From: Escherichia phage vB_EcoM_3HA14
Length of the DNA: 64,000 bases
Reading direction: 5' to 3' (one strand)
Sequence record: MN342151.1
Both the position numbers and the translations under genes were made by a program. The notes under the pieces are model-generated. The model ran no database searches. It was not told the origin of the DNA and saw nothing but the letters and a program-made list of their open reading frames with translations. This document shows positions 1 to 34,898 of the stretch, one piece after another; position 1 is the stretch's first letter; every line of letters begins with the position of its first letter.

Positions 1-2
1 AT

Positions 3-2192
3 ATTAAGATTAACGCCAAAACTAAACGTGCTCTTGATAATGAGTACCTCAAGCTTAAGAAGTGTGGTGTTGACACTTATGAAACCTACATGCGAGCTAA
101 AGAAACATCCTTCTGGATGAGTCAGCAAGCTATCAACGGTTGGAAAGCTGATGTAGAACTTATGCAGTTCCACGTTAAAGAACTTGACAAGTTAACTAAC
201 GAGTTGGCTGCTGAGGTTGAACCACACCTTCCACCAACTATTAAGACAAAAGGTAAAGTCACAGGTGAAGAATTTGCCAAGTCTTGGAACGAGTATGTAG
301 ATACATTTGGTCACGTTGATGGTTTGAAAAGGATTACCAAGTACCCTAAGACAAAGTATCGTGAACAGATGCGTGAAGGTGAGTTGAAGCAGTACCCTAT
401 CAAGCCGTATGGTAAGCCAACTACAAAGATTTTTAATGTTGAGAAGCGCAACTGCTACACTCCAACTAACACGGTCACAAAAGAAGAGTACCCTGAAGGT
501 TTTGTAGCAATGAAAGATGCTCGTGCAGTTTGTAATGAACTGAATGAGAAGATTGGCAAGAAGTGTAAAGATTGGAAGCCAGTTAAGACTGTGAAAACTG
601 TGAAGTACTACAACGTTCACGTTGTTAATCACTTTGAGTTAGAGTCTAGTCGCTACACTGGTTTGATTGATGCACCATTCACACCAATTGAGTTTGAAGT
701 TTCACGAATGACTCAGGTAGCTGTGGTGAAGGATTACTTAAAATCCGTTGGCTGGATTCCTGATGATTGGAACTATAAAAAAGATTCTGACGGTCGTCCT
801 ATCAAGGTTTGCAGGTTCAAAGACAACAAAAAGATGATTCGCAAACATCCTAAGTGGGATGAGATGGTTGAACGTTGTGGGTTGAACTATATTGAGCATG
901 AAGGTGTCTACTACATCGAGCATAACTGGTCTGTTAAGAAGTACACAGATGTGCTTGAGCCTTGCTTGATTAGGACTTCACCAAAGCTTACAGAATCTTC
1001 TTATGATACAATCGAAGGTGAGCTTGGACAGAAGATTGCGAAGTACTATACTTTGATGCACCGACGCAGGACTATCGAGAACTCAAAGGATGATGAGAAA
1101 GGTTGGCTGAACCAGATTCGTCCAGATGGTCGTTTGAGTGCAGGTGCAATGGTGTTTGGTACTTCTACTGGACGTATGACTCAGTATGGTATTGTGAACG
1201 TACCTTCTGGTGCTGCTGTGTACGGTGAGCCAATGAGGGCAGTGTGGATTTGTGAAGAGGGAACCAACGTAGTATCTGTTGATATGAACTCTGCACAGCT
1301 TGTACTACTCTGTAACTTCATGGGTGATAAAGACTTCACCAAAGCGGTAACAGAGGGTAAAGAAGAGATTGAGTTTGTCCGTCAAGAGGATGGAAGATAC
1401 TACTGTAAACACTTTGACCAGTATCTGAATCCAGAGATTGACAAGTATCTGCGTTACGACTCTGAAAACGATTTGTACGTAGTTTACTCAGGGACTGATG
1501 CTCACACTCTGAACAGTATCTACTTCAGCCTTAATGATGAGCAAGATATCTTGACTTGTCGTGCTACTCAGGATGAGAATCTTCTTCATGAGATTAGCAA
1601 GGGACGTAAGAAAGCTAAGAATGGTATCTATGCTTTGTTGTTCGGTGCAGGTGATGAGAAGTTTGCTAAAACAATTAAAGCAGCAACTACTCAGGAAGGT
1701 GCATTGACTAAGCAGACTTACTTTGTGCGTTTACCGAAGATTAAGAAACTGTTAGACAACTTGGAAGCTGATTTCAAAGCAACTAAGAAAGCACTTGAAG
1801 AGGTGTTTGGTAAAACTGCTGCAATCTCTAAAGGTGGTTTTGTGAAGGTTGCTGGGGCTTGGCTGTGGTGTAAGTCTCCACACAAACTCTTGAACTATTT
1901 GCTGATGGGTTCAGAAGCACAAGTTCAGAATGAAGCAATCAACCTTGCATGTCGTCGTATGATTGACGAAGGTTTGATGAAGTTGAATGGTCGTAAACCA
2001 GCTATTGGTGCTCGCTTACTCTGTGCTTACCACGATGAAACAAGCTGGGAATGTCCAGAGAGCATGACAGCAGATGTGAAAGCAGTAACTGACTGGTATT
2101 ATGGTCAAGCATCTAAGAACCTTGGGCTAAGAAAAGAGACATTGGTCACAGGTGCAGGGAAAGTTGGTAAATCGTGGCTTGAAGTCCACTAA
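3..2192 (+). CDS. DNA polymerase, family A (5'-truncated; gene continues upstream of window)
   Basis: Reading frame is open from window position 3 with no upstream stop. Pol A-like motifs seen: VSVDMNSAQL (motif A-like), RKKAKNGIYALLFGAG (motif B-like), LLCAYHDE (motif C-like). Confidence 0.85.
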   Translation: MKINAKTKRALDNEYLKLKKCGVDTYETYMRAKETSFWMSQQAINGWKADVELMQFHVKELDKLTNELAAEVEPHLPPTIKTKGKVTGEEFAKSWNEYVDTFGHVDGLKRITKYPKTKYREQMREGELKQYPIKPYGKPTTKIFNVEKRNCYTPTNTVTKEEYPEGFVAMKDARAVCNELNEKIGKKCKDWKPVKTVKTVKYYNVHVVNHFELESSRYTGLIDAPFTPIEFEVSRMTQVAVVKDYLKSVGWIPDDWNYKKDSDGRPIKVCRFKDNKKMIRKHPKWDEMVERCGLNYIEHEGVYYIEHNWSVKKYTDVLEPCLIRTSPKLTESSYDTIEGELGQKIAKYYTLMHRRRTIENSKDDEKGWLNQIRPDGRLSAGAMVFGTSTGRMTQYGIVNVPSGAAVYGEPMRAVWICEEGTNVVSVDMNSAQLVLLCNFMGDKDFTKAVTEGKEEIEFVRQEDGRYYCKHFDQYLNPEIDKYLRYDSENDLYVVYSGTDAHTLNSIYFSLNDEQDILTCRATQDENLLHEISKGRKKAKNGIYALLFGAGDEKFAKTIKAATTQEGALTKQTYFVRLPKIKKLLDNLEADFKATKKALEEVFGKTAAISKGGFVKVAGAWLWCKSPHKLLNYLLMGSEAQVQNEAINLACRRMIDEGLMKLNGRKPAIGARLLCAYHDETSWECPESMTADVKAVTDWYYGQASKNLGLRKETLVTGAGKVGKSWLEVH

Positions 2193-2197
2193 TAGTA

Positions 2198-2232
2198 TTG
2201 ACAAGGTGCTCATGGAAGAGTACCTTATACTA
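2198..2232 (+). promoter_or_regulatory. Possible sigma70-type promoter upstream of first small early gene
   Basis: TTGACA at 2198-2203; -10 candidates TACCTT/TATACT downstream with imperfect spacing; followed by AGGAG RBS and ATG at 2254. Confidence 0.25.
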
Positions 2233-2253
2233 TATATTGTATAGGAGACTTGT

Positions 2254-2454
2254 ATGACTATTTCAGAAATTGAAGTTCAACTGCAATGTGCTGGATATTC
2301 TCAAAGTGAGATTGAGGCTATGTGCATCATCATTTGCAGTAGCCATAAGCACCTCAAGCTTTCTAATGAAAATCTTCGCAAGGTTGATATTTTTATTGCT
2401 GGAGGTAAGATTATCAAGGATAAGACAGGCTACCTTAAAGGTGAACGTCTATGA
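2254..2454 (+). CDS. hypothetical protein (66 aa)
   Basis: ORF with AGGAG RBS 7 nt upstream; first gene after polymerase. Confidence 0.35.
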   Translation: MTISEIEVQLQCAGYSQSEIEAMCIIICSSHKHLKLSNENLRKVDIFIAGGKIIKDKTGYLKGERL

Positions 2455-2660
2455 GCCATCGTGGAAGAACTCATCTCGCCATGATGCAAGGTGCTTCAAA
2501 AGAGACTATCAAGAATCGGAAGAAAACTCTTTTTGACAGAATGAATAGACTCATCGATAATGCAAGCCTACCTAACTCTGAAAAGGTTTTCTTGAAAGGG
2601 AATCTGAAGAGTATTGCACAGGAACTTATTGACATTGAATTTTGGAGACACCAAAAATGA
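2451..2660 (+). CDS. hypothetical protein (69 aa)
   Basis: Start overlaps preceding stop (ATGA), suggesting translational coupling. Confidence 0.35.
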   Translation: MSHRGRTHLAMMQGASKETIKNRKKTLFDRMNRLIDNASLPNSEKVFLKGNLKSIAQELIDIEFWRHQK

Positions 2661-2848
2661 CATACGAAGAAGCTCTCGAAGCTATGAAACAGGGCAAGAA
2701 AGTTCGAAATGAAAATTTCACATCTGATGAGTTCTTTGAAATAAAAGACGGAAAGGTTGTATGTGAAATGGGTTACCCAATGGCTGCATGGTACAAGGGG
2801 GAACCTTGGCAGAAAACTGGATGGAGTATCTTTAATGAAACTTTATAG
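2657..2848 (+). CDS. small protein with DUF2829-like N-terminal motif (candidate Tad2-like)
   Basis: Chose internal ATG 2657 with GGAG RBS. N-terminus MTYEEALEAMKQGKKVRNENF resembles the conserved start recalled for DUF2829 phage proteins; assignment from memory only. Confidence 0.4.
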   Translation: MTYEEALEAMKQGKKVRNENFTSDEFFEIKDGKVVCEMGYPMAAWYKGEPWQKTGWSIFNETL

Positions 2849-2967
2849 CATTTGGGGAAGAGTTGGTGAAGGTTATGACTGGACTCTTCTTAAAACAAAT
2901 GTTAAAAGTAACGAGATAGCTTACTACAAAATCTATTACCATAAAACTTTTAGAGAGGTAGAGTATC

Positions 2968-3219
2968 GTGAGCAATAAAGAGCAAGAAGCTTTAGCAATC
3001 TTCAAGAGCGAAGACAAATCAATAGCTTTTGTCTCAGAGGCTTGGTGCAGGGATTTGGGGTATGATTGGTATCTCTTCTTATGCGCTAAGAAAGATGTTA
3101 AACCAGTTGATGAAACCCGATTCAAAGAACTGTATAATATCTGCCAAGAGGGTTATGAAGAACATTACGAAGGTTCTTTGAATCCTGTAAATTCAAAAGC
3201 TTCAGATTTATTTTATTGA
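2968..3219 (+). CDS. hypothetical protein (83 aa)
   Basis: ORF in co-directional early gene block. Confidence 0.35.
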   Translation: MSNKEQEALAIFKSEDKSIAFVSEAWCRDLGYDWYLFLCAKKDVKPVDETRFKELYNICQEGYEEHYEGSLNPVNSKASDLFY

Positions 3220-3229
3220 GAGGTTTGAA

Positions 3230-3475
3230 ATGTTAAAATTATTGATACCAGCTTTAGTAGTCCTACTGGTTGGATGTAACCCTTCTTATGAGAATAAGGA
3301 TGCTTCTTACAGACTTCCTCCAGAAATGCAAGACTGCAAGATTTATAAACTTAATGGTGATGCCATTAGCAGGGATGTTATTGTAGTTCGCTGCCCAAAT
3401 TCTCAGACGACAACTTCTTACAAGTATGGGAAGAATAGTCAGTCACACACCACAGTTTTTGATGGGGGATATTAA
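3230..3475 (+). CDS. putative lipoprotein (81 aa)
   Basis: N-terminus MLKLLIPALVVLLVGCN has a signal sequence plus lipobox (LVGC); GAGG RBS upstream. Confidence 0.5.
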   Translation: MLKLLIPALVVLLVGCNPSYENKDASYRLPPEMQDCKIYKLNGDAISRDVIVVRCPNSQTTTSYKYGKNSQSHTTVFDGGY

Positions 3476-3476
3476 T

Positions 3477-3683
3477 ATGCAGGTTCTGGTAAACTTTATC
3501 TATAAGTATGAAAACATCTTCAGCACTATGACTGTAGCTCAACGCAATCCAGTTATTCCACGAGAAGGGGAGACTGTTGAGATTAATGATTGGAACTACA
3601 GAGTTGAAGAGGTCAAGCATAAACTTAAAGATGGTTATGACCACCAAGTTGTAAATGTGTATTTAAAAGGTAAGTGGCAATGA
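3477..3683 (+). CDS. hypothetical protein (68 aa)
   Basis: ORF-track start at 3426 overlaps the lipoprotein gene; internal ATG 3477 has a GGGGGA RBS and abuts the upstream stop. Confidence 0.35.
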   Translation: MQVLVNFIYKYENIFSTMTVAQRNPVIPREGETVEINDWNYRVEEVKHKLKDGYDHQVVNVYLKGKWQ

Positions 3684-4213
3684 GTGAAAAAAGGTTATTC
3701 AAAGAGTCCTACAGTAATCTGAAGATGGGTTATCAAGGCTACTCAATACCTTGGTATGAAGATAAGAAAAAACAGTATTCAAACCCTTTTATATATCAAC
3801 CTGTAAAACTCTCTGTACTGGAGTTTTGGCATGAAACTGGAGCTACGCCATACCAATTTGACAACATGGAATATGCGCGTATTTGTAAAAGTCTTGGTGC
3901 AAGACAAGTTGATAATATCATTGAACATTTGAAGGATTTGTATAAAGATTTTGCTGGATACTTATACGAGAAACAGTTTGGGGAGTGCTTAAAATACCCA
4001 GATGGGTCACTTGTTCTGCTCTCATACATGTCTAATGGTAACATAAAAATTGCATACAAAGACCTGTGTGATAACTACTATGATTTTTATACTAGATTGA
4101 GACTACCATACCCAGATAGCTCCTTTTCCTTATCTAGCAATGCAATGACGCACTCTGGGAATATTGTTTCTGTTGAAAAATTAAAAAAGACGTGGGAGAA
4201 GAAAAATAAATGA
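3674..4213 (+). CDS. hypothetical protein (179 aa)
   Basis: Long ORF; start overlaps the previous stop. Confidence 0.45.
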   Translation: MAMSEKRLFKESYSNLKMGYQGYSIPWYEDKKKQYSNPFIYQPVKLSVLEFWHETGATPYQFDNMEYARICKSLGARQVDNIIEHLKDLYKDFAGYLYEKQFGECLKYPDGSLVLLSYMSNGNIKIAYKDLCDNYYDFYTRLRLPYPDSSFSLSSNAMTHSGNIVSVEKLKKTWEKKNK

Positions 4214-5310
4214 CAATTCTGTACAAACAAAATAAAGATGGTTCTTTCAACGTCTGGTCATGTGTTGCTGTAGGTGATAAAGTCGTCACAACTTATGGTA
4301 AAGAAAATGGCAAGATGATGTTTGAAGAGTACACAGCAGAGCCAAAGAACATCGGTAAGAAGAATGAGCGTAATGCTGAACAGCAAGCTCTTTTTGAAGT
4401 TGCTGCTAAGTACAAGAAGCAGGTTGACCGTAAAGGGTATGCTTACACAAAATCTGAAGCAGAGAATGTTGAAAAGGTTGGTGTACAGCTTGCTCAGGAT
4501 GCTTCCAAGATAAGTCACAAGAAGTATCTGGTATTTCCTGCCGATGCTCAACCTAAACTTGATGGGGTTCGTTGCAGGATTTCAAGAGATGCTGACTCAG
4601 AAAGTTTTACGGCATATTCTCGTGAGAACACGGTATACAACATTCCTGTAGAGTTGATTCCTGATGTTCTTCTTATGCTGAAACTGCACAAAGATGTTGA
4701 AGATTTCGATGGTGAGATTTATGCTCATGGTTGGGACTTGGAAGATATTGTATCTATGATTAAGAATGCTGACAATCCAGACCGTCACCTTCTTAAATTC
4801 TACTGGTATGATATCTGTGACAAGACTAAATCTTGGCCTGAGCGTCGTGAAGTTATTGATAATTCACCAATCGTTGAACTCGGTGATGCTTGCAGGGTTG
4901 TACCTGTTCAGACAATCCGTGTTAACTCTTGGGAAGAATTTGATAATGCTCATGACAACTGGGTTAAACTCAAGTTTGAAGGGGCAATGTATCGGTCAAT
5001 CTCACCAGATTCGTTCTATGAGTGTGGTCATCGCTCTTACTTCCTGATTAAGCACAAGAAGATGCACACACAGGAATTTAAAGTAACGGGTGTAAAGACT
5101 GATAAACGTGGTCATGGTAAGTTCGTTGTAGAGACTCTTCCTAACGTCTTTGTAGATGTTTCATGGAAAACTACACACGAGAAGAAAAAGTATCTTGCTG
5201 AACATCCTGAAGAGTTTATCGGGAAGCCTTTAACGGTTCAGTTCCAGAAGATGACTCGTAAGGGTTCTTTACAGTTCCCTGTTGGGCTAGTAATTCGAGA
5301 CTATGAATAG
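4210..5310 (+). CDS. ATP-dependent DNA ligase
   Basis: Adenylation motif I KxDG present as PKLDGVRC; size (366 aa) fits compact phage ligases. Confidence 0.8.
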   Translation: MTILYKQNKDGSFNVWSCVAVGDKVVTTYGKENGKMMFEEYTAEPKNIGKKNERNAEQQALFEVAAKYKKQVDRKGYAYTKSEAENVEKVGVQLAQDASKISHKKYLVFPADAQPKLDGVRCRISRDADSESFTAYSRENTVYNIPVELIPDVLLMLKLHKDVEDFDGEIYAHGWDLEDIVSMIKNADNPDRHLLKFYWYDICDKTKSWPERREVIDNSPIVELGDACRVVPVQTIRVNSWEEFDNAHDNWVKLKFEGAMYRSISPDSFYECGHRSYFLIKHKKMHTQEFKVTGVKTDKRGHGKFVVETLPNVFVDVSWKTTHEKKKYLAEHPEEFIGKPLTVQFQKMTRKGSLQFPVGLVIRDYE

Positions 5311-5318
5311 AGGTTAGT

Positions 5319-5468
5319 ATGTTTAGCACAATTATCCTGTTTGTTTTTGTTGTTTTATCATTATCTTACTTCATAAGTAAACTTTTAAGCATAACATACA
5401 AAGCAGCCTTAGCCCTTACTCTGTTGTCATTTGCAGTAAATGCAGCAGTTAGAATGTATTTAGTATAA
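5319..5468 (+). CDS. small hydrophobic protein (49 aa)
   Basis: Not in ORF track (under 60 aa). ATG 5319; product MFSTIILFVFVVLSLSYFISKLL... is largely hydrophobic. Confidence 0.3.
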   Translation: MFSTIILFVFVVLSLSYFISKLLSITYKAALALTLLSFAVNAAVRMYLV

Positions 5469-5473
5469 AATTG

Positions 5474-5501
5474 TTGACATGAGTAACCTGACGGGTATAC
5501 T
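5474..5501 (+). promoter_or_regulatory. sigma70-like promoter inside a palindrome
   Basis: TTGACA (5474-5479), 16-nt spacer, TATACT (5496-5501). Flanked by inverted repeat CTGACGGG...CCCGTCAG with inner CTATATAG palindromes; GGAGG RBS before ATG 5546. Confidence 0.5.
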
Positions 5502-5545
5502 ACCTATATAGAAAATTATATAGGAACCCGTCAGAAACCTCGGAG

Positions 5546-5932
5546 GTGTTTATGAAAAAGTTACTTGTTGGTGTCATTGCTATTGGTATGAGTTTTAGTG
5601 CAGCAGCTATGAAGATGCCTGAAGCAAACTTTAATGGTGTCGCTTTAGAATCTTGTAAGATTGTACAGAAAATCGCTTCAAATGCTGGAGAGTTGACTAA
5701 ACCGTTGTCTGCTCAGACTGTTCAAGAAATGACTGATAAGATGGTTGACTACAACTACCATTTTATGGGAGATTACTATGACAGATTAGCAGATGAGATG
5801 GTTACTCAGAACGTTGACCTTCTTGATAGCAAAGGTATTGAGACTGTAGAAGATGTGAAAGACAATTTTATGCGTGAGTCTTTCAAAGGTGTTCAATACT
5901 TTATTGAAAATCGTCACTGCATGGGTTTATAA
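5546..5932 (+). CDS. secreted or periplasmic protein (128 aa)
   Basis: N-terminal signal-peptide-like segment MFMKKLLVGVIAIGMSFSAAA; own promoter and strong RBS. Confidence 0.5.
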   Translation: MFMKKLLVGVIAIGMSFSAAAMKMPEANFNGVALESCKIVQKIASNAGELTKPLSAQTVQEMTDKMVDYNYHFMGDYYDRLADEMVTQNVDLLDSKGIETVEDVKDNFMRESFKGVQYFIENRHCMGL

Positions 5933-5934
5933 TC

Positions 5935-6138
5935 ATGAAGAAGAACATCTGTAGAGCAGACTACGGTGAAGTAGTCGATGATGACGGAGTAGTTATTTAC
6001 AGAGTTTGGGCAAGTGATTATTCAACCGTTGTAGAGTCTTTAGATAACTACATCAATGGGACTCGTGAAAACGTCAGAGCAACTAATCTTGATTCGTTAA
6101 TAGACACTTCTCGAAAACGGAGAAAGAAAGATGAATGA
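5935..6138 (+). CDS. hypothetical protein (67 aa)
   Basis: ORF in early block. Confidence 0.35.
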   Translation: MKKNICRADYGEVVDDDGVVIYRVWASDYSTVVESLDNYINGTRENVRATNLDSLIDTSRKRRKKDE

Positions 6139-6430
6139 AGTCTTTGACCCATATGCACCTCAAGATTCTTGGGAGGCTGATAGAGAGGCTGAAATGGAGA
6201 ATTATGTCTGTCCAATGGATATAGAAGAGATGAAAGACTTTGTATCTTTCAGATTCTCTAAAGAGATTGAGAAGCTAAAACTTTCTCAGGCTCAAGTAGC
6301 AACTGTTTGTGAAATCTCACAGAGTCGTGTATCAAATATCATTAACGACCCTCAAAAGATTTCTTTAGAGTACATGCTTAATGCTTGTACAAAACTTGGT
6401 GTAAATTTTAACTTAAGGCTGGCAGATTAA
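6131..6430 (+). CDS. putative HTH DNA-binding protein (99 aa)
   Basis: C-terminal segment LSQAQVATVCEISQSRVSNIIN resembles an XRE-type helix-turn-helix. Confidence 0.45.
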   Translation: MNEVFDPYAPQDSWEADREAEMENYVCPMDIEEMKDFVSFRFSKEIEKLKLSQAQVATVCEISQSRVSNIINDPQKISLEYMLNACTKLGVNFNLRLAD

Positions 6431-6431
6431 T

Positions 6432-6791
6432 ATGAAACGTGAAAATGCAATCTTTAACGATAACTTTGCAATTGGCTTCTATGGTAAACCAACTCCAGCA
6501 GAGAAGCTTTATGGTAATGCAATTCTGGAGACCTTGAAAGAGGTTTACACAACTGGTGGTATGAAGCATACTGAAGCAAACCGTGTAAGAGGTTATATGG
6601 CAATTGGCTCTGCAATCTCTAACATCAAACTTGAAACTACAAGTGCTAAAAAGGTACGAGACCACTTCATCAAAGAGTTGTCAGAGAACCTAGATGGTGT
6701 TGAAGTCAAGGCTGTCTGGTTAGATGTTGATGGTCACAACTATACAACTTTTGTGTTTAAAAATGAGGATATCAAATGTCTCTTCCCTTAA
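6432..6791 (+). CDS. hypothetical protein (119 aa)
   Basis: ORF in early block. Confidence 0.4.
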   Translation: MKRENAIFNDNFAIGFYGKPTPAEKLYGNAILETLKEVYTTGGMKHTEANRVRGYMAIGSAISNIKLETTSAKKVRDHFIKELSENLDGVEVKAVWLDVDGHNYTTFVFKNEDIKCLFP

Positions 6792-7279
6792 AACTCGATT
6801 TATACTTTGGGTACAGTGTATTGCAAGGCAGCATACTATCACTACCAAAGTCAGATTATCGTTGTGATTTAGGTTCTGTGAAACGTGCATCACACTTTAA
6901 CAACAATATCTTAGGCTTGCAGACACTTCACAGGTGGCTTGAGGAAGATGGACGGTTAAATGAATATCTTCACCAACTAGAACTAGCCAAAGAAGAGGGG
7001 CATATGGGTTGGAATTTACTACCCCATCTGTACAAACCTGCAAGTCCTATGGAGATACGCTATAACGAACAATCTGTTGATAGTTATAACAAATATAATA
7101 TAACTATTGGCTCAAGACCTTGGAAGGAGTATGGAAAGCTCCGTGAAATCATTATACAGACTATTGGAAAGCGTGTAGCAAAAGGTATTGCTTATGATGA
7201 AAAGGTTGACTGGAATACACAAAAGTGTATAAAATTCTTCAAGTACGATAATGACAAAGATACTTTTGTAGAGGTTTAA
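6776..7279 (+). CDS. hypothetical protein (167 aa)
   Basis: ORF in early block. Confidence 0.4.
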   Translation: MSLPLKLDLYFGYSVLQGSILSLPKSDYRCDLGSVKRASHFNNNILGLQTLHRWLEEDGRLNEYLHQLELAKEEGHMGWNLLPHLYKPASPMEIRYNEQSVDSYNKYNITIGSRPWKEYGKLREIIIQTIGKRVAKGIAYDEKVDWNTQKCIKFFKYDNDKDTFVEV

Positions 7280-7280
7280 C

Positions 7281-7796
7281 ATGAAAATTGGAATTACCCT
7301 TTGCCAGCCTGAAGCAGAGTTCTTGAAATCAATGTTGTCTGAGCATATGAAGTCCACAAATCACACTGAGAAGACATTCTTGATTGACACTAACTATGAT
7401 GCAGGAACTATTGAGTTCATTGATGAAGACACTGCTGATTCTCTGTGTGTTCTTCCTGCTCACTTATTTACTCCAGAGCTACGTGAAAGTCGTTCTATTG
7501 AAGTTAATCTGGAGCCAAGTATTGAACTGTACTCAGATACACAGTATCCAAGAAGCTTTAAAGCATTGCTAAACATCTTCGTAGCTGATATTGTAGAGAT
7601 TGTTAAACAGACTGAAGGTGGTCATGTAGTAACTGCTGAGTATGAACAAGGCACTATCAAACTGACAGGTGACTTTGGTTCTATGAGTTTCTTAGACTTT
7701 GTTCCAAAACACTTTGAAGACTTTCTATCAAGTGAAGTTGATGACCTCGATTTCATACTAAAATTTGAACGCACTTTTAAGGTAAACAAAAAATGA
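7281..7796 (+). CDS. hypothetical acidic protein (171 aa)
   Basis: ORF; product rich in D/E. Confidence 0.4.
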   Translation: MKIGITLCQPEAEFLKSMLSEHMKSTNHTEKTFLIDTNYDAGTIEFIDEDTADSLCVLPAHLFTPELRESRSIEVNLEPSIELYSDTQYPRSFKALLNIFVADIVEIVKQTEGGHVVTAEYEQGTIKLTGDFGSMSFLDFVPKHFEDFLSSEVDDLDFILKFERTFKVNKK

Positions 7797-8065
7797 AAAT
7801 CTTAAGCGGAGTATCACAGTGTTACATGAATGATGGTGAGCCAGTTAAATGCTGCCATTGTGGAGGTGAGAACTTCCAAGGTGAAGTTTCAGAGATTGTC
7901 TCTGGCAATATCGCTGAAGAGTACACCCGTTGCTGTGGATGTGGAAAGATTTTATCTTTTTGGGCTTATGGAAGTTATGAACCACAACCTCACCTTATTT
8001 ACCATCCAAACAGGATTGTGAAGCGTGTTCTGAACTGGTTCATTATCAAAGGATTTACAAAATGA
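7793..8065 (+). CDS. Cys-rich zinc-ribbon-like protein (90 aa)
   Basis: Paired CxxC-like motifs (CCHCGG ... CCGCG). Confidence 0.4.
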   Translation: MKILSGVSQCYMNDGEPVKCCHCGGENFQGEVSEIVSGNIAEEYTRCCGCGKILSFWAYGSYEPQPHLIYHPNRIVKRVLNWFIIKGFTK

Positions 8066-8607
8066 TTAAGTTAATTTTTGCAAGTGGTATTAACGGGGAG
8101 TTTGGCACAGCTACTGGAATGCCTTGGCCTCGTAATAAACAAGATATGGCAGAGTTTAAGAAGCAGACTGTTAACCAGTTAGTCTTGATGGGTAGCGAAA
8201 CTTGGAAGACTCTTGGGAGCAAGCCTTTGCCAAACCGTGAGAATATTGTCTTGACAAACTCTCTTGACTTTTACGGTCTGGACTTTAAAGATGACTCTCA
8301 TTGTAAAGCAAGAGTTAAGCCTGAAGCTTTTGGGGCTTTCCTGAAGTATATTGATAGCTCTATTGATGAAGATGTTTTAGTAATCGGTGGAGCCAATATC
8401 TTAATCTCAGCTTTGCCGTATGCTGACGTAGTTTTCCACAGTGTTATTAAGGAAGTTACTGAAGAGGCTACTGTCAAGCTACCTTATGAGGGTTTCTTCC
8501 AGTACTTGTATGACACAGAGTTATTTGCTAAAGTACAGTCCAAACCTTCAGAAGATAAGTCTGTTGTGTTTGATACCTATGTTCCACAAGTAAGAGGACG
8601 TTTCTAA
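8062..8607 (+). CDS. folA: dihydrofolate reductase
   Basis: N-terminus MIKLIFASGINGEFG..MPW...LVLMGSETW..LG..PLPNRENIVLT matches the DHFR family pattern; sits next to thymidylate synthase. Confidence 0.8.
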   Translation: MIKLIFASGINGEFGTATGMPWPRNKQDMAEFKKQTVNQLVLMGSETWKTLGSKPLPNRENIVLTNSLDFYGLDFKDDSHCKARVKPEAFGAFLKYIDSSIDEDVLVIGGANILISALPYADVVFHSVIKEVTEEATVKLPYEGFFQYLYDTELFAKVQSKPSEDKSVVFDTYVPQVRGRF

Positions 8608-8608
8608 T

Positions 8609-9508
8609 ATGTCACAAGCAGATGTAAGCTACAAAGCTATTTTAAACCATGTTTTATCAGTTGGTGAGTTGCGTAAAACCCGAACTGGCTCAGTGATTTC
8701 AACCTTTGCTCCACCTGAGTTCCGTTTTGATATGCGTAGTGGATTTCCATTAATCACCTCAAAACAAACATTCATGCGTCAAGTCCTCGGTGAAGCATTA
8801 TGGTTTATGAACGGTGAAAACCAACTAGGCCATTTGCGTTACAGAACTTGGGGAGAGAACGACGGAGAGCGTTGGACTATCTGGACAGATGATTTTAAAC
8901 GTTGGTTGAAAACAACCTATGCTACAGAGAATGATTGGCTGGAGGATGCTGGAGGAAGAATCTATGGAGTCCAATGGAGAGCCTACGAAGGTCATGGTGG
9001 CGTTGTTGTAGACCAGTTGAGTAATCTTGTAGAGAAGATGAGAAAGTCTCCTACAGACCGTTACATGCTCGTTAACGCATGGAATGCAGCAGATATCTCA
9101 AGTAACTCTATGGCATTAGCACCTTGCCATGTACTTTTTCAGATTTATATCTCGAACACTAATGAGGTGGATTTGAAATGGTATCAGCGTTCTTGTGATA
9201 CGTTCTTAGGGTTACCATTTAACATTGCTTCCTATGCCTTTATCTTGGAAGTGTTGTGTAAACTGACGGGATATACACCGCGATATCTGGTAGGGACTTA
9301 TGGTGATACTCAAATCTATCAGAACCATATGTCACAGGTTTTTCAGCTTCTTGGCAATGAAGAGTTCCCAGCACCTAAGTTTGAAATTCATCAAGATTTG
9401 AAGTCTCTTGAAGACTTGAGACATATGACAGCAGATGACTTCCTAGGTGGGTTGAAAGGGTATAAACATGCTGGTAAGATTGAAGCACCTTTATCAGTAG
9501 GTAAGTAG
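8609..9508 (+). CDS. thyA: thymidylate synthase
   Basis: Catalytic-site region ALAPCHVLFQ and QRSCDTFLGLPFNIASYA closely match ThyA conserved blocks. Confidence 0.9.
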   Translation: MSQADVSYKAILNHVLSVGELRKTRTGSVISTFAPPEFRFDMRSGFPLITSKQTFMRQVLGEALWFMNGENQLGHLRYRTWGENDGERWTIWTDDFKRWLKTTYATENDWLEDAGGRIYGVQWRAYEGHGGVVVDQLSNLVEKMRKSPTDRYMLVNAWNAADISSNSMALAPCHVLFQIYISNTNEVDLKWYQRSCDTFLGLPFNIASYAFILEVLCKLTGYTPRYLVGTYGDTQIYQNHMSQVFQLLGNEEFPAPKFEIHQDLKSLEDLRHMTADDFLGGLKGYKHAGKIEAPLSVGK

Positions 9509-9512
9509 AAAC

Positions 9513-9545
9513 AAAAAAGGCTCCCGTAAAAAGGAGCCTTAGAAT
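9513..9545. terminator. probable bidirectional rho-independent terminator between convergent genes
   Basis: Stem GGCTCC/GGAGCC with short loop; A-run upstream and T-rich downstream gives a T-tract on both strands. Confidence 0.5.
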
Positions 9546-9919
9546 TATTTCTTTTTAGTGCTTTGGGTATTTTGTTCTGTAATTGCTTGCAAAGCTGATA
9601 CAGATTGTGCTAAGTTGTTAACACTGTCAGAGAACTTATCAAGGGTCTTAGTCAACTTAGCGTTTTCTCCCTTAACATTCTCTAGCTGAACTTTCTGGTT
9701 CTCCATCCCTAATTGTAGGAGCTTCATATCAGATTGTAAGTCACGAATAGCTGAATAGTTACCTTTTGAGTAACCATCCAACTGCTGTAACTTATTTGTG
9801 ATAGACACTTCCTGTTTACCATCAGAGACCTGCATTGTAGTGTACATACCAATTACACTGAAAATACCTACAACGATTGCACCAATATTATTCTTAAAAG
9901 CATCTTCAAGCCACTTCAT
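9545..9919 (-). CDS. membrane-anchored coiled-coil protein (124 aa)
   Basis: N-terminal hydrophobic segment IGAIVVGIFSVIGMY followed by heptad-like Q/L/K-rich region. Confidence 0.45.
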   Translation of the reverse strand: MKWLEDAFKNNIGAIVVGIFSVIGMYTTMQVSDGKQEVSITNKLQQLDGYSKGNYSAIRDLQSDMKLLQLGMENQKVQLENVKGENAKLTKTLDKFSDSVNNLAQSVSALQAITEQNTQSTKKK

Positions 9920-10113
9920 TATTTCTCACCTTTAAAAGCCTTTTCCAAGGTATCTACAAATTCATCATCAATAGGTGTATCTGTTTTGCTCGCAAGGTAT
10001 CTTGCAAGCTTAAAGAACACTTTTTCAATCATGTATTCACTGAGAAGAGAAAAAAGAAGCTTCCAAAAGAATGCCCCAAGGTTTTTCATGAGGATTGCTA
10101 GAATGGTTGGCAT
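9919..10113 (-). CDS. small membrane protein (64 aa), holin-like candidate
   Basis: Hydrophobic N-terminal half, charged C-terminus; start overlaps downstream gene. Confidence 0.35.
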   Translation of the reverse strand: MPTILAILMKNLGAFFWKLLFSLLSEYMIEKVFFKLARYLASKTDTPIDDEFVDTLEKAFKGEK

Positions 10114-10199
10114 TTAATCACCTTACTTCTTGAGCCAAGATGGTGAGAATACCTACTAAGAAATATTAACACCATCTTGACAGTTAGTCAACAAGGTAA

Positions 10200-12578
10200 T
10201 TATGCAGTTCTTACCCAAGCCATTAATTTAATGTAAGTGTTCTGAACACTGAATGCTGCACCAGAACCAGTTGCACCAGTGTTACCACTAAATGTGTGGT
10301 TGTGAGCACCAATACCTACACCGTGACCGTGAGCACCTACCCAACTTGTTCTCCCTGTCCAAGTTCTTGATGCGTAGAAGTTGACAGGTGTACCATAAGT
10401 GAATTGTGAACCAGTATAACCTCTAGAGGCTTGTGAACCTGAGATAGCGAATGCCCCACTTGCTGTATAGAAGCTGTTTGCATCACTTCTGAAGAAACCA
10501 AAGTCACCAGAGATTTCCATGTTACCTCTGTCATGGTCGTGAGCACCTTGAGCGTCTGTGTACTTAGTACCATAATCAAATGTACTTGTTGTTCCAGAGA
10601 AGCTATGAGTGTGCGCAGGAATATGACCAACACTTAGAGCCACCGTATCAGAACCACCAAGACCTTTCACATCGGAACCATTTGCAGAACCAATCCTAAT
10701 AGTTCTGTTTGCACCTTCTGTCAAGTAAGTCCAAGTAGTGCCTGGGAAAGCTGTATTTGGGTTGACATTAGAAGCAAAGAACGTCACAATACCAACTGGA
10801 TACACTTTCTTAAGGTCTGTAGAATCAGTTACCGCAGAGGCAATACGTTGGTCTACTTCAGCCTTGGTGTAAGCACCAAGTTCAGAGGGTGTAGGTTTGT
10901 CTTGGTCTGTGTAGATTTTAGCCCAAACCTCTTCAAAACCAAATCCATCCCTTGCTGTTCTATAATAGATTCCAGTATTCTTGTAGTTAAATTTAAACTG
11001 TGCAGTCGGTGTAGATGTACCAACTCCAAGGTGCATTTGGTAAACTAAGTGAGTAGACCCACCAGTTGAATTTGTAACACTGTACAAACCTGTTTTTGAA
11101 TTCCAAGCAATACCTGTTGCATCACCTACTTCTGTTCCCGTTCCAGATACACCAGACAACATATATCTTGAGTTTGCAGCAGATTGTGTGTAGTATCTTG
11201 AGTCAAAGTTTGACCAATCTGTAGGCTGAACCTGACCAGTTACTGATACGCTTCTGTTGAACATGAAAGTGTCAGCAATTTCTAACTGTACACCACCACT
11301 TGAATAGTTGTACAGGAACAGAGAATTTGGCCTACTGCCTTCACCGTTACCAATATACCAACGTCTGTTGCCGTCTGCATTAGCGCCAACAATATACAGT
11401 GATGAATTAGCTGTCCCACTTTGCAATGTGAAAGCCGCATCTGTAGTAACAATAGTTTGTGGGTTAGTAAAAACGTTTGCAGCATTAGTTCTTGCAAGCA
11501 CGTTCGTTAAAGAGCTTGGAACATATCTTGTATCAAAGTTTGCGAAGTCACTTGGTTTTACCTGACCAGATACATTAATAGCTTTGTTAAATGAAAACTC
11601 TGTAGCAATTTTCAAGTTAACATTTGTCATCTGGTTTGCTAAAACAATCTCAGACTGCGTACCATCTGGTTGACCCACATACCAAGCACCTGTCCCAGCA
11701 CTGTTGTAACCACGCATAAATAATGCAGCATTCTCTGAAGCCGCTCTTAAGTTAAGTGCATTACTATCTGCAATAACATAAGTCTTCCCGTTGAAGTTGT
11801 TAACCCCAACAAAGTTATTACTTGCATTAAGTCTTGCAAATCTCTGGTCAGCAGCAGTCTGTGTAAAGAATCTTGCATCAAGGTTGTTCCAGTTATTAGG
11901 CTGAACCTGACCATTGATTTCAAAGTTCTTGTCAACACTAACAGAGTTTGTACCAAGAGTCAACGTAGCACCTTTGCTGTTAACTAATGTAACATCAGTC
12001 CCAGAAGTCAAGTTACCAACTGTGAATCTCAAAGCATTATTTGAGTCTCTTGCTTCAATATATGCTCCACCATCTGGTAAGATACTTTTAAGTGTCAAAC
12101 CAACACCGTTGATATTAATGATTTGTCTTGCCAAGAAAGTATTTTCAGTTTCCTTCATAGCATATCTTGCATCATTTTCAGTGTTAGTTCTCATACCTAA
12201 TTCATTAGGAGATGGTTTATTAAGTGTGTGATAAACTGTTGCAGACCTTGTGGCATCATTTACAGTTAATCTTAAAGCACTTGCATTAATTCTAAAGGTC
12301 TTGGCAGTGTCACCGAGAATAACTTCAGAAGAACCTGTTGGGTCTAATAAGTCTTTTCCACCGTATCTTAATTTAACGATGCCAAGATTTCCTGTCATAT
12401 CCCCACCAGTTAGTTGTAAGAATCTTTCTAGTTTGAAAGAGGCAAGGAAATTTGCATAGGTCATTTTACGGTCTTCATCACCTAGCATATCAGACCTTTT
12501 GATAATTCTTAGGTGAAGTAAATCTTCTGAGCGAACTGTATCAATACTGTTTAGCTCACTTAGCTTATATTCAGCCAT
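10200..12578 (-). CDS. tail fiber protein (792 aa)
   Basis: Large S/T/N/G-rich protein with repetitive N-rich segments and C-terminal His-x-His boxes (HIPAHTHSF, HDHD, HGHGVGIGAHNHTF); first gene of the tail module. Confidence 0.7.
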   Translation of the reverse strand: MAEYKLSELNSIDTVRSEDLLHLRIIKRSDMLGDEDRKMTYANFLASFKLERFLQLTGGDMTGNLGIVKLRYGGKDLLDPTGSSEVILGDTAKTFRINASALRLTVNDATRSATVYHTLNKPSPNELGMRTNTENDARYAMKETENTFLARQIININGVGLTLKSILPDGGAYIEARDSNNALRFTVGNLTSGTDVTLVNSKGATLTLGTNSVSVDKNFEINGQVQPNNWNNLDARFFTQTAADQRFARLNASNNFVGVNNFNGKTYVIADSNALNLRAASENAALFMRGYNSAGTGAWYVGQPDGTQSEIVLANQMTNVNLKIATEFSFNKAINVSGQVKPSDFANFDTRYVPSSLTNVLARTNAANVFTNPQTIVTTDAAFTLQSGTANSSLYIVGANADGNRRWYIGNGEGSRPNSLFLYNYSSGGVQLEIADTFMFNRSVSVTGQVQPTDWSNFDSRYYTQSAANSRYMLSGVSGTGTEVGDATGIAWNSKTGLYSVTNSTGGSTHLVYQMHLGVGTSTPTAQFKFNYKNTGIYYRTARDGFGFEEVWAKIYTDQDKPTPSELGAYTKAEVDQRIASAVTDSTDLKKVYPVGIVTFFASNVNPNTAFPGTTWTYLTEGANRTIRIGSANGSDVKGLGGSDTVALSVGHIPAHTHSFSGTTSTFDYGTKYTDAQGAHDHDRGNMEISGDFGFFRSDANSFYTASGAFAISGSQASRGYTGSQFTYGTPVNFYASRTWTGRTSWVGAHGHGVGIGAHNHTFSGNTGATGSGAAFSVQNTYIKLMAWVRTA

Positions 12579-33541: not shown

Positions 33542-33617
33542 TGGAGTATCGGAAGGGACTCGAACCCTCATAAACCTGTTTTGCAGACAGGCACATAACC
33601 ATTTCTGACACCGACAC
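33542..33617 (-). tRNA. tRNA-Cys (GCA)
   Basis: Manual fold: acceptor GTGTCGG/CCGATAC, anticodon arm CCTGT-CTGCAAA-ACAGG, T-arm GAGGG-TTCGAGT-CCCTT, CCA encoded. Confidence 0.75.
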
Positions 33618-33623
33618 ATAATT

Positions 33624-33716
33624 TGGAGGAAGATACCAGACTTGAACTGGTACGCCGATTTCTCGGTTACTGGCAGTTTAGCAAACTGCTCCCTTACCTT
33701 TTAGGGTTAATCTTCC
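33624..33716 (-). tRNA. tRNA-Ser (GCT), long variable arm
   Basis: 93 nt; acceptor GGAAGAT/ATCTTCC perfect; anticodon loop TTGCTAA; long variable arm; T-loop TTCAAGT. Confidence 0.75.
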
Positions 33717-33717
33717 A

Positions 33718-34452: not shown

Positions 34453-34468
34453 TATGCACCTATAAAGT

Positions 34469-34545
34469 TGGTAGCCCATCGGGATTTGAACCCTGTTCTC
34501 ATGTTTTTCAGACACGCGCTTTAACCATATAAGCTAATTGAGCTA
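34469..34545 (-). tRNA. tRNA-Phe (GAA), atypical acceptor/D spacing
   Basis: Anticodon arm CGTGT-CTGAAAA-ACATG; D-arm GCTT-ATATGGTTA-AAGC; T-loop TTCAAAT; acceptor pairs only with a 1-2 nt offset and T-stem is weak. Confidence 0.55.
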
Positions 34546-34551
34546 TTAAAT

Positions 34552-34628
34552 TGGGGTGACCTACGGGAATCGAACCCGTATAGACCATGTTCACAGCATG
34601 GGTCATTATCCATTTATGATAAGGCCAC
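34552..34628 (-). tRNA. tRNA-His (GTG)
   Basis: Anticodon arm CCATG-CTGTGAA-CATGG; D-arm TCAT/ATGA; acceptor GTGGCCT/AGGTCAC; CCA encoded. Confidence 0.75.
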
Positions 34629-34659
34629 ATTTAAGGACTCTCGTAAGAATCCTTAGAAG

Positions 34660-34735
34660 TGGCAGCAGTATAAGGATTTGAACCTTAATCTTTCAGCTTC
34701 AGAGGCTGGAGCATTGCCAGTTATGCTATACTGCT
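34660..34735 (-). tRNA. tRNA-Gln (CTG)
   Basis: 76 nt; anticodon loop CTCTGAA; D-arm GCAT/ATGC; acceptor AGCAGTA/TACTGCT perfect. Confidence 0.7.
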
Positions 34736-34741
34736 AATATT

Positions 34742-34820: not shown

Positions 34821-34822
34821 AT

Positions 34823-34898
34823 TGGCGGGGGATGATGGAATTGAACCATCTTCTTCGATTTCAAAGACCGAGGTTTTAACCTTGTAAACTAATCCCCT
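34823..34898 (-). tRNA. tRNA-Gln (TTG)
   Basis: Anticodon arm TCGGT-CTTTGAA-ATCGA; D-arm GTTT/AAAC; position 1:72 mismatched. Confidence 0.65.

Follow-up and report, generated by a model that had tools for sequence, protein, structure and literature searches.

The 64,000-nt stretch analysed here, referred to as the window, belongs to a Mooglevirus (Felix O1-like, Ounavirinae) and is 98.2% identical to Shigella phage Sf15. The promoter considered below lies inside a rightward block of genes for DNA replication and nucleotide metabolism, whose features are collected in Table 1. A variable slot separates the ligase gene from the promoter; in this phage it holds a small ORF whose stop codon lies 5 nt 5' of the -35 box, and in relatives it is empty or otherwise filled, giving four different occupancies. 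Downstream, the gene for a 126-aa protein is followed by genes for a 67-aa protein at 5935-6138, a Cro/CI-type HTH protein, proteins of 119, 167, 171 and 90 aa, dihydrofolate reductase and thymidylate synthase. The terminator behind them is the sole canonical plus-strand terminator within positions 1-12000 and corresponds to t79/t80 in the Felix O1 listing (Felix O1 paper). A consensus scan found no canonical plus-strand terminator between 1 and 9517, so that read-through from upstream into the promoter region is plausible. The locus had been assigned to an "early region", a label that fits loosely, as it lies in a replication and nucleotide metabolism block; RT-PCR placed the peak of most tested ORFs in the corresponding Felix O1 transcription unit at 25 min. 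The Felix O1 genome paper describes the organisation and timing of transcription in these phages as unknown, and its promoter list does not include the present one. Neither that paper nor the UAB_Phi87 paper describes the promoter/hairpin element, and a literature search for Felixounavirus transcription start maps returned nothing useful.

Table 1. Features of the locus, the second module in the window and the versions of the outer stem arms (V1-V6)
Feature	Position	Strand	Remarks
Second promoter-plus-hairpin module	2193..2253	+	polymerase / gp55 intergenic region
Parts of second module	TTGACA 2198-2203; TATACT 2226-2231; ATG 2254	+	22-nt spacer between boxes; ATATATTGTATAGGAG between TATACT and ATG
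Ligase gene	4210-5310		upstream of variable slot
49-aa membrane-type ORF	5319..5468	+	fills variable slot between ligase gene and promoter
-35 hexamer TTGACA	5474..5479	+	invariant in 18/18 distinct orthologous sequences
Outer stem, left arm CTGACGGGT	5488..5496	+	about -20 to -12; 3' half of spacer plus T-12
-10 hexamer TATACT	5496..5501	+	16 nt after -35; hexamer and spacing invariant in relatives
Inner AT-rich palindrome CCTATATA-GAAAAT-TATATAGG	5503..5524	+	about -5 to +17; upper stem of hairpin
Conserved block ATATAGGAAC	5518..5527	+	V1-V5; ATATAGTAAC in L067 and L068; last A pairs with T-12
Outer stem, right arm ACCCGTCAG	5526..5534	+	about +19 to +27; 5' UTR, 7 nt before RBS
Shine-Dalgarno GGAGG	5542..5546	+	5 nt 5' of ATG 5552; RBS annotated at same spot in phage Michonne
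First operon gene, 126 aa	5552..5932	+	Sf15 gp64 / Michonne gp48; PHROG 4332
Rest of operon, eight genes	5935..9508	+	tightly packed or overlapping
Cro/CI-type HTH protein, 99 aa	6131-6430	+	Pfam HTH_3, E = 2.8e-8
Dihydrofolate reductase gene	8062-8607	+	operon member
Thymidylate synthase gene	8609-9508	+	last operon gene
Bidirectional intrinsic terminator	9517..9540	both	closes rightward block; called by consensus scan
V1 arms	CTGACGGGT / ACCCGTCAG		version of present phage
V2 arms	TCCGGTAGTT / AACTACCGGA		
V3 arms	AAACATAGCAAGT / ACTTGCTATGTTT		
V4 arms	TAGTGGGT / ACCCACTA		
V5 arms	AACCTAGTAGGT / ACTTACTAGGTT		
V6 arms	TGGTGAGTA / TACTCACCA		loop sequence unrelated to other versions

The near-consensus promoter is present as originally predicted, TTGACA-16-TATACT matching the consensus at 11 of 12 positions, with an RBS and a signal-peptide ORF 3' of it. 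An exact TTGACA-N15-18-TATAMT occurs once in the 64 kb, but the motif alone is not rare, with 0.25 occurrences expected by chance and at least one in 25% of shuffles. Among 18 distinct orthologous sequences, the hexamers and the 16-nt spacing never vary, while the spacer sequence is free to do so. It is this conservation, together with the covariation described below, and not the motif match, that gives the element its non-chance status. The position of the promoter places the predicted start site at about 5507-5509. The comparative sequence evidence supports a promoter for host sigma70 RNA polymerase, heading a ~4-kb operon that reaches from the 126-aa protein to thymidylate synthase and ends at the terminator at 9517-9540. 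The original idea that it drives one secreted protein is too narrow, as this operon has nine genes.

That first product had been taken as a 128-aa protein, a length that we revise: the GTG at 5546 that would start it overlaps GGAGG, and all homologues begin instead at the equivalent of ATG 5552, as do the annotated genes of Sf15 and Michonne. The N-terminus of the resulting 126-aa protein is signal-peptide-like (MKK, a hydrophobic core, SAAA), its body is predicted to form a three-helix bundle (AlphaFold2, mean pLDDT 89), and Cys35 and Cys123 are invariant. Neither the sequence (Pfam, NCBIfam, PDB) nor the model (significant matches outside its own family in PDB or BFVD) gave a match. A role as a T4 Spackle-like periplasmic superinfection-exclusion protein was considered and dropped, as no structure or sequence match supported it.

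Two inverted repeats, one within the other, occupy the region around the start site. The outer one, CTGACGGGT/ACCCGTCAG, is a perfect 9-bp repeat with 29 nt between its arms. The promoter had been described as lying inside it; the repeat encloses the -10 box and the predicted start site together with the 3' half of the spacer, but the -35 box stands outside. The arms of the inner repeat are 8 bp long (CCTATATA at 5503-5510 and TATATAGG at 5517-5524). Where several CTATATAG palindromes had been seen between promoter and RBS, we find one exact copy (5504-5511), the second reading TTATATAG/TATATAGG. RNA folding yields a two-tier hairpin of -22.3 kcal/mol (z = -7.6), which ranks ninth among all non-overlapping 55-nt segments on both strands of the 64 kb. 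Its lower stem of 9 bp is separated from the upper stem of 8 bp by an asymmetric internal loop of 6 x 1 nt, and the upper stem is closed by a loop of 6 nt. By the same measure, transcripts that start at the promoter itself have an unstructured leader (z = +0.97). DNA folding likewise gives a stable structure for both strands (-12 kcal/mol, z about -6 to -7). A search of Rfam 15 with the region 5300-5700 gave nothing meaningful even at E <= 5, and with the whole window at gathering score it gave tRNAs only.

The outer arms exist in six unrelated sequence versions that are always complementary, and the arm changes that separate close relatives are compensatory substitutions. When the alignment is registered on the arms, pairing holds in 92% of cells, with changes on both sides at 8 of 10 pairs; the covariation score of 0.589 (0.316 in shuffles) was reached by none of 500 shuffles, and pairing drops to 26-50% when the partners are slid. 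Arm length ranges from 7 to 13 bp, the distance between arm centres from about 33 to 46 bp and the loop from 24 to 32 nt across versions; in one relative (L075) the stem is weakened to 7 bp. The two-tier fold is shared by all four versions tested, V1-V4, at -15 to -22 kcal/mol. A bracketing repeat is absent from nine unrelated TTGACA-16-TATACT sites in other contigs (eight metagenomic, one viral), and in shuffled sequence only about 2% of promoter-like sites have one; pattern scans of metagenomes and viral sequences for further arm versions returned mostly chance matches, which served as negative controls. The alignments show that the outer repeat is under selection for base pairing and not for sequence, the stem having been kept foldable while its sequence was rewritten at least six times.

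This pattern bears directly on the original prediction that CTGACGGG...CCCGTCAG is an operator. A dimeric phage or host repressor bound to CTGACGGGT/ACCCGTCAG would occlude the -10 box, which the perfect 9-bp repeat flanks, and CTGACGGG is over-represented in the window (5 copies, 0.48 expected). However, the other three copies, at 9263, 22049 and 39879, which we considered as operator sites, are lone half-sites inside genes, and the window holds no second copy of the outer palindrome. The arms are wholly different in six lineages and change in a compensatory manner between close relatives, and with their variable length and centre spacing they are too distant and too variable for a single dimer. 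The only recognisable DNA-binding protein nearby is the Cro/CI-type protein of the operon, whose recognition helix, ISQ(A/S)RVSNI, is near-invariant across phages with different arms and does not co-vary with them. Since this helix hardly changes while arm length and spacing do, the outer palindrome is not the operator of that regulator. The operator claim is thus not supported, and repressor binding to the outer repeat in general seems to us very improbable.

Could the same protein act on the inner repeat instead, in a narrower version of the original operator idea? Autoregulation of the operon by its Cro/CI-type protein, with CCTATATA-N6-TATATAGG and the block ATATAGGAAC as the operator, would fit the presence of the gene in the same operon and its near-invariant recognition helix. 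In all Ounavirinae, both promoter types found before the gene have a related block, ATA-CAAAAT-N-TATATAGG, after TATACT, and TATATAG-type motifs are enriched in the window (CTATATAG with 7 copies, 1.07 expected). Yet the palindromic symmetry is poorly kept: the inner palindrome is only loosely retained in relatives and missing from V6, CTATATAG is confined to V1 and its closest relatives, and the conserved part comes down to the block ATATAG(G/T)AAC. In addition, the inner 21-nt element has no second copy in the window, and the AU-rich leader would equally suit a translational enhancer or a feature of the initially transcribed region. We therefore consider an inner operator unlikely. Elsewhere in the window, CTATATAG is clustered at 49485-49708, in a conserved non-coding repeat region; any tie between this cluster and the promoter is speculative, because the promoter motif is not conserved across arm versions.

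Does the stem act as DNA or as RNA? Covariation alone cannot tell the two apart. The folding energies of the plus and minus strands do not differ consistently, and an assignment of the strand by this route was dropped. One-sided changes comprise three cases of G.T or T.G on the plus strand against one C.A, a small count. The left arm ends at T-12 or A-11 in all 18 sequences, which is where strand separation by sigma70 starts, and fork-junction DNA is the form that sigma70 binds best. It is conceivable, although very unlikely in our estimate, that the stem acts in DNA, the extruded or paired arms presenting a single-stranded -10 box beside a duplex that ends at -12, so that promoter strength would depend on supercoiling, replication or passing polymerases. 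The stable DNA fold on either strand, with similar energies, would agree with such a role. The 24-32-nt central spacer, on the other hand, makes cruciform extrusion very unfavourable, V6 lacks an inner repeat that could nucleate it, the G.T positions favour plus-strand RNA, and the anchoring at -12 is also explained if the spacer is simply the only free sequence near the start site. The stricter proposition that the stem is a structural part of the promoter, a protein-free, structure-operated switch in which arm pairing in supercoiled, replicating or transcribed DNA creates a fork-junction -10 box, we regard as very improbable indeed. One point against our favoured RNA reading is that the stem is anchored exactly at -12/-11 in all versions, which may reflect a connection with promoter melting and not economy of space alone.

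On balance, and with moderate confidence, we propose that the locus carries a sigma70 promoter fused to a hairpin that forms in read-through RNA, a composite cassette resembling the PeSLs discussed below, and not a repressor site. The left arm exploits the only sequence-free part of the promoter, its spacer, and the right arm lies in the 5' UTR. This arrangement puts the predicted start site between the arms, and formation of the hairpin would consequently be limited to read-through RNA from the upstream polymerase-ligase genes. Transcripts from the promoter itself would lack the left arm and, from this geometry, begin with an unstructured leader. By analogy with the PeSLs of T4-type phages, the hairpin on read-through RNA may serve as an attenuator or insulator by bringing about partial termination or a pause next to the RBS; it would then be mainly the operon's own promoter that determines how strongly the downstream genes are expressed. 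Termination, if any, is probably weak, because V1, V2 and V6 have no U tract and the 24-32-nt loop is unlike that of a canonical terminator. In the present phage the 29-nt loop and stem are followed by AAACC, and the terminator scan made no call. V3 and V5 carry 4-5 U at or after the stem.

The absence of a U tract in V1, which speaks against a classical terminator, would also agree with a different function in read-through RNA, namely processing or stabilisation rather than attenuation. In phage T7, RNase III sites lie between genes and next to promoters. After cleavage at a site of this type, the ligase message would end in a protective 3' hairpin and the RBS downstream would be released, and both the two-tier V1 fold with its asymmetric internal loop (9 + 8 bp, 6 x 1 nt) and the location between two gene blocks, 7 nt 5' of the RBS, would suit such a role. 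The upper stem, however, is only 3-5 bp long in V2-V5 and absent from V6, which leaves the helix often well below the ~20 bp that the enzyme prefers; RNase III processing thus strikes us as rather unlikely, if worth keeping in view.

The proposed promoter-hairpin cassette has one counterpart in the window, and the two modules, at 2193-2253 and 5474-5551, are the only ones in the 64 kb. In the second, the 22-nt spacer is itself the hairpin, AGGTGCTC / GAGTACCT, with one plus-strand G.T pair (-20.3 kcal/mol, z = -3.9). The conserved blocks have no further copies in the window, and we count against a PeSL-like reading that the motif is not highly repeated. A genome-wide rule of promoters set in hairpins was rejected, as a bracketing repeat is found at just 2 of 46 promoter-like sites. 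A repeat at 7219-7269 around TTGACT-18-TAAAAT was likewise considered as a module; it is not kept in relatives and lies within conserved codons, and we attribute it to chance. We also observed a 12-bp repeat at 3119-3184 with one uncompensated change, for which few divergent relatives are available for comparison.

Relatives carry two further module types at the locus studied here. Sf17, which is conspecific with Sf15, carries a two-gene cassette of 1.7 kb between a V6 and a "type B" module; the present window lacks this cassette. The breakpoints between Sf17 and Sf15 or the window fall inside the modules, in the spacer and just after TATACT. This comparison indicates that the modules mark crossover points for the gain and loss of gene cassettes.

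What would such an element mean more broadly? Felix O1-like phages are widely used in typing and biocontrol of Salmonella and E. coli. The locus offers a concrete and well-conserved test case, a host-type promoter with its start site inside a stem that evolution has remade six times or more, and its natural compensatory variants amount to a ready-made mutant series. If the PeSL-like reading is correct, promoter/stem-loop cassettes are not peculiar to T4-type phages and may represent a convergent way in which large virulent phages insulate and shuffle their gene modules. In practical terms the gain is modest, consisting of an improved annotation of the operon and a candidate strong, self-insulating promoter part.

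Several known systems invite comparison. Operators of the lambda OR/OL type also place a palindrome over a promoter, with a Cro/CI-type HTH gene downstream in the same transcription unit; here, however, the half-sites are ~38 bp apart instead of ~10 bp, there is a single site instead of an array, and conservation extends to the recognition helix but not to the sequence of the arms. Intrinsic terminators share the stable, GC-containing stem at the end of a gene block and, for V3 and V5, the 4-5 U, but not the 24-32-nt loop or the missing U tract of V1, V2 and V6, and the consensus scan is silent here, unlike at 9517-9540. The RNase III hairpins of T7 and T3, such as R1.1, are likewise two-tiered with an asymmetric internal loop, lie between gene blocks near a promoter and just upstream of an RBS, and keep their structure and not their sequence. 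In those phages the promoter stands beside the hairpin and not inside it, and most versions of the present element have a weak upper stem or none.

The closest parallel is with the PeSL cassettes of the T4-type phages phi1/RB49, PST and nt-1 (Arbiol et al. 2010, PMC2839356; Comeau et al. 2014, PMC4122927). A PeSL combines a sigma70-like promoter, a stem-loop and a Shine-Dalgarno sequence; the stem-loops, which lie between the boxes or over the -10 or -35 box, act as terminators of upstream transcription and mediate the shuffling of cassettes (PMC2839356; PMC4122927). Promoter, terminator and mini-circle activities have been demonstrated for PeSLs (PMC2839356; PMC4122927). Unlike the PeSL phages, which carry dozens, this genome has two modules in 64 kb, and it belongs to the Ounavirinae, with no sequence homology between the elements. 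PeSL stem-loops are compact polyG/polyC hairpins; the present element is a long-range, mixed-sequence stem whose 24-32-nt loop holds the -10 box and the start site, in V1 without a U tract. The mixed-sequence arms, the long loop and the Ounavirinae genome make it a PeSL analogue and not a homologue. In both systems an intergenic module runs from an upstream stop codon through sigma70 boxes, a promoter-overlapping stem-loop and a Shine-Dalgarno sequence to a start codon, and the stems contain G.T pairs. Three of the five positional subclasses are found here: between the boxes (2193-2253), over the -10 box (the element described above) and over the -35 box ("type B", in relatives). As with PeSLs, near-identical phages differ in the cassettes that the modules flank, and the crossovers fall inside the modules themselves.

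The promoter and inverted repeats originally predicted upstream of the gene of interest were recovered with small corrections: TTGACA, the 16-nt spacer, TATACT and both repeats are all present. If transcription starts at about 5508, the outer arms span -20 to -12 and +19 to +27; the repeat therefore encloses the -10 box and start site, as had been claimed for the whole promoter, but not the -35 box. Folded as RNA, this stretch gives a two-tier hairpin of -22.3 kcal/mol (z = -7.6), ninth in stability among 55-nt windows on both strands of the 64 kb; the most stable local hairpin, an 18-bp stem of -27.7 kcal/mol, lies on the minus strand at 41605-41659. No other exact TTGACA-N15-18-TATAMT occurs in the 64 kb, against a chance expectation of 0.25, so the motif alone is not improbable. 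The start codon is the ATG at 5552, 5 nt past GGAGG, and not the GTG at 5546; the product is therefore 126 rather than 128 residues long.

The window shares 98.2% identity with Shigella phage Sf15 and 92-98% with Citrobacter and Shigella Mooglevirus phages (Ounavirinae, Felix O1-like); its 23 tRNA genes, clustered on the minus strand at 33545-38573, are expected in a Felix O1-like phage. The rightward block runs from DNA polymerase through small ORFs and an ATP-dependent DNA ligase to the gene of interest (Sf15/Michonne annotation), followed by a 67-aa ORF, a Cro/CI-type helix-turn-helix (HTH) protein, four ORFs without an assigned function, dihydrofolate reductase and thymidylate synthase. 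The terminator closing the block is the sole canonical plus-strand terminator within 1-12000.

Features of the promoter region and its counterparts in relatives (window positions, except in lines naming an upstream-region sequence of a relative, L076 or L078)
Feature	Position	Sequence	Remark
Second module, -35 box	2198-2203	TTGACA	22-nt spacer follows
Second module, -10 box	2226-2231	TATACT	followed by ATATATTGTATAGGAG
Second module, start codon	2254	ATG
ATP-dependent DNA ligase	4210-5310		rightward; Sf15/Michonne annotation
Slot, 49-aa membrane ORF	5319-5468		window; also Felix-type L076
-35 box	5474-5479	TTGACA	plus strand
-10 box	5496-5501	TATACT	plus strand, after 16-nt spacer
Outer repeat	5488-5496 / 5526-5534	CTGACGGGT / ACCCGTCAG
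Inner repeat	5503-5510 / 5517-5524	CCTATATA / TATATAGG
Gene of interest	5552 (start)	ATG	Sf15 gp64, Michonne gp48
Bidirectional terminator	9517-9540		closes rightward block
Outer arms, V1		CTGACGGGT / ACCCGTCAG	window, Sf15, Michonne, L067
Outer arms, V2		TCCGGTAGTT / AACTACCGGA	PC79-13, EcSzw_1
Outer arms, V3		AAACATAGCAAGT / ACTTGCTATGTTT	Sf13
Outer arms, V4		TAGTGGGT / ACCCACTA	L041
Outer arms, V5		AACCTAGTAGGT / ACTTACTAGGTT	L069-L073; internal G.T pair
Outer arms, V6		TGGTGAGTA / TACTCACCA	Felix-type phages, Moogle, Sf17
Slot, empty			Sf13, PC79-13
Slot, uncalled basic, Cys-containing open frame, ~60 aa			L067-L073; sequence inspection
Slot, two-gene cassette			Sf17
GT-rich tracts, L078 (Sf17)	1560-1790, 2990-3150
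GT-rich tracts, L076	about 1150-1420

Upstream regions gathered from GenBank phages, IMG/VR, metagenomes and Logan/ENA assemblies include 18 distinct sequences with TTGACA-16-TATACT at the orthologous site, immediately preceded by the ligase gene or by a small ORF. Hexamers and spacing are invariant in all 18 while the spacer sequence varies, the pattern expected of a functional sigma70 promoter, which bears out the promoter reading. The outer repeat is present in 18/18 as well, as six unrelated sequence versions (V1-V6); the V6 loop is also unrelated to the other loops. In every version T-12 pairs with an A as the innermost pair. Stems comprise 7-13 contiguous pairs around loops of 26-32 nt (24 nt when counting an extra A-11:T pair, possible in V6 only), and the V1 stem is extended to 10 bp in Michonne and L067, each by a different single substitution. 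In an alignment of the orthologous regions, fitted to the structure only in that the arms were put in register by trimming the loop, 92% of cells are paired and both-sided changes occur at 8 of 10 pairs (27 cells); three cells that count as "unpaired" in a single column do so artefactually, since V2 is shifted there by one base. Covariation scores 0.589, compared with 0.316 in shuffles, none of 500 reaching it, and sliding the partners by 1-3 columns reduces pairing to 26-50%. Nine unrelated TTGACA-16-TATACT sites from the pattern scans, taken as negative controls, have no such repeat, and about 2% of promoter-like sites in shuffled window sequence have a bracketing one. Covariation, controls and shuffles together thus show that the pairing is under selection, and we consider both basic claims, that the promoter is real and that the stem is selected for its pairing, highly probable.

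Does the stem act as RNA or as DNA? One-sided changes produce a plus-strand G.T or T.G pair in three cases (V4, V5 and Felix-type V6), the second module described below also has a plus-strand G.T pair, and one C.A pair, which would wobble on the minus strand, occurs in a single relative (L075); this thin evidence leans toward plus-strand RNA. Computed folding energies differ in no consistent way between the strands, and the sequence folds as DNA too; a structural switch at the DNA level seems very unlikely to us. The geometry is more telling. Because the arms bracket the start site, the promoter's own transcripts cannot form the stem, and their leader is unstructured (z = +0.97). Read-through RNA coming from the polymerase and ligase genes is able to form this stem, with no intervening terminator. 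The left arm always lies in the spacer, ending at -12, because the spacer is the only start-adjacent stretch free of sigma70 sequence constraint.

By analogy with the promoter-early stem-loop (PeSL) cassettes of T4-type phages, we lean toward a composite mechanism. The sigma70 promoter would drive a nine-gene operon and be fused to a hairpin forming in read-through RNA only; this hairpin would attenuate or insulate that RNA, and the composite element would double as a cassette boundary. That the stem, formed in the same read-through RNA, is an RNase III or stability site appears unlikely. Likelihoods were estimated separately for each statement, not as shares of one total; some of the readings overlap or are compatible with one another, and the estimates sum to slightly more than one.

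The original proposal that the outer palindrome is an operator is contradicted by its evolution. The Cro/CI-type protein (Pfam HTH_3, E = 2.8e-8), encoded three genes downstream, has an HTH, SQAQVA..CEISQ(A/S)RVSNI, that is near-invariant across V1-V4 and one Felix-type phage, and the 67-aa protein's basic tail is likewise near-invariant; with its reading head unchanged, one protein cannot track six different half-site sequences. Neither arm length nor centre-to-centre distance (about 33-46 bp) is constant, and the outer palindrome has no second copy, the three further CTGACGGG octamers in the window being single copies within genes. Close versions differ by compensatory changes (three double changes from V1 to V4, two from V3 to V5), which is helix-like behaviour. 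An operator in the outer arms is thus scarcely credible. An autoregulatory operator in the inner AT-rich element, which could coexist with a hairpin acting on read-through RNA, is improbable.

In the 67-aa ORF (5935-6138) the basic C-terminus, VRAT..DSLIDTSRKRRKKDE, is invariant; the ORF gives a weak winged-helix match (Trans_reg_C, E = 0.011) and has an 8-nt overlap with the HTH gene. Its product is perhaps a small partner of the HTH regulator that binds nucleic acid. A TTGAAA-18-TATAAT (5904-5933; 11/12 consensus match) lies in the last codons of the 126-aa gene, abutting this ORF. The 126-aa protein itself belongs to a family of 258 Ounavirinae records (31-100% identity; PHROG 4332, limited to Ounavirinae and without annotated function). 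By inspection, its N-terminus is signal-peptide-like, as first described, with a tripartite arrangement of MKK, LLVGVIAIGMSF and SAAA and no lipobox. Cys35 and Cys123 are invariant, the AlphaFold2 model has three long helices (mean pLDDT 89; residues 1-16 of low confidence), and PDB, BFVD, Pfam and NCBIfam contain no fold or sequence match. At most, sequence and model suggest an exported, possibly disulfide-bonded protein.

The block has just one more intergenic gap of notable size, at 2193-2253, where the polymerase gene is separated from a gp55(-like) gene, and it contains a related module. Its spacer is a hairpin, AGGTGCTC-ATGGAA-GAGTACCT, of 8-9 bp; the module has a folding energy of -20.3 kcal/mol (z = -3.9), Sf13 and L041 conserve it, and its 22-nt spacing exceeds that of ordinary sigma70 promoters. 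A third module, type B, with a similar spacing of 23 nt, precedes the 126-aa gene in most Felix-type phages. It reads AAGCTATAA-aatctgTTGACAagtcaggtg-TTATAGCTT-ATTTT-TATACT, the stem enclosing the -35 box, and continues with the same ATA-CAAAAT-TATATAGG leader.

The slot upstream of the -35 box has four fillings (table). Sf17 and Sf15 belong to one species, and the gp64 of Sf17 shares 97.6% identity with the window's protein. In Sf17, ligase is followed by a 49-aa ORF and a V6 module; then come two genes and a terminator, with GT-rich repeats before and after them, and finally a type B module and gp64. This 1.7-kb cassette is missing from the window and Sf15, which have a single V1 module in its place; divergence begins within the spacer and the sequences rejoin right after TATACT. 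V1-V5 resemble hybrids in which a V6-type module supplied the upstream half and type B the downstream half, with a new right arm; if so, the stem was rebuilt after the deletion. In relatives, GT-rich (GGTNN)n tracts lie on both sides of the two-gene cassette, along with a hairpin, CATCACTTAAGAG...TTAAGTGATG, that is itself repeated; the tracts, annotated as direct repeat DR_4 in wV8, are absent from the window.

Two further repeat regions were noted. A perfect 12-bp inverted repeat, GATTCAAAGAAC / GTTCTTTGAATC (3119-3130 / 3173-3184), surrounds a TATAAT at the 3' end of an Sf15-gp59-like ORF, immediately ahead of the next gene; Michonne has one uncompensated right-arm change, and divergent relatives for comparison are few. 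A long non-coding stretch (49360-50500) is rich in short repeats, with five CTATATAG at 49485-49708 and many CTTAACA and CTAACAAG copies; 254 Ounavirinae records share it at 70-98% identity, some annotating a repeat_region, and it might mark the end of the genome or serve as an origin or as an array for protein binding.

Of the five promoters given in the Felix O1 genome paper, none is at this locus, and the paper describes transcriptional regulation as unknown. We found no literature report of promoter/stem-loop elements in Felix O1-like phages, and a PeSL full-text search returned no Felix O1-like phage paper among the matches listed. The case made here is one of compensatory evolution, clean and several times repeated, at a promoter of bacterial type, extending a known PeSL-type idea to a new phage group rather than describing a new kind of system. 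PeSLs combine an intergenic sigma70-consensus early promoter, a stem-loop, a Shine-Dalgarno sequence and a start codon; the stem-loop, which contains G.T pairs, lies between the boxes, over -10, over -35, upstream or just downstream, terminated upstream transcription in reporter assays, and PeSL-PeSL recombination shuffles gene cassettes (Arbiol et al. 2010, PMC2839356; Comeau et al. 2014, PMC4122927). Unlike PeSLs, which occur in dozens of copies, the Ounavirinae modules number two per 64 kb and have no homology to them; their stems are of mixed sequence with 24-32-nt loops, in contrast to compact G/C hairpins, and V1, V2 and V6 lack a U tract. Like PeSLs, they flank an indel between near-identical phages, and the three modules correspond to three of the five PeSL positional subclasses.
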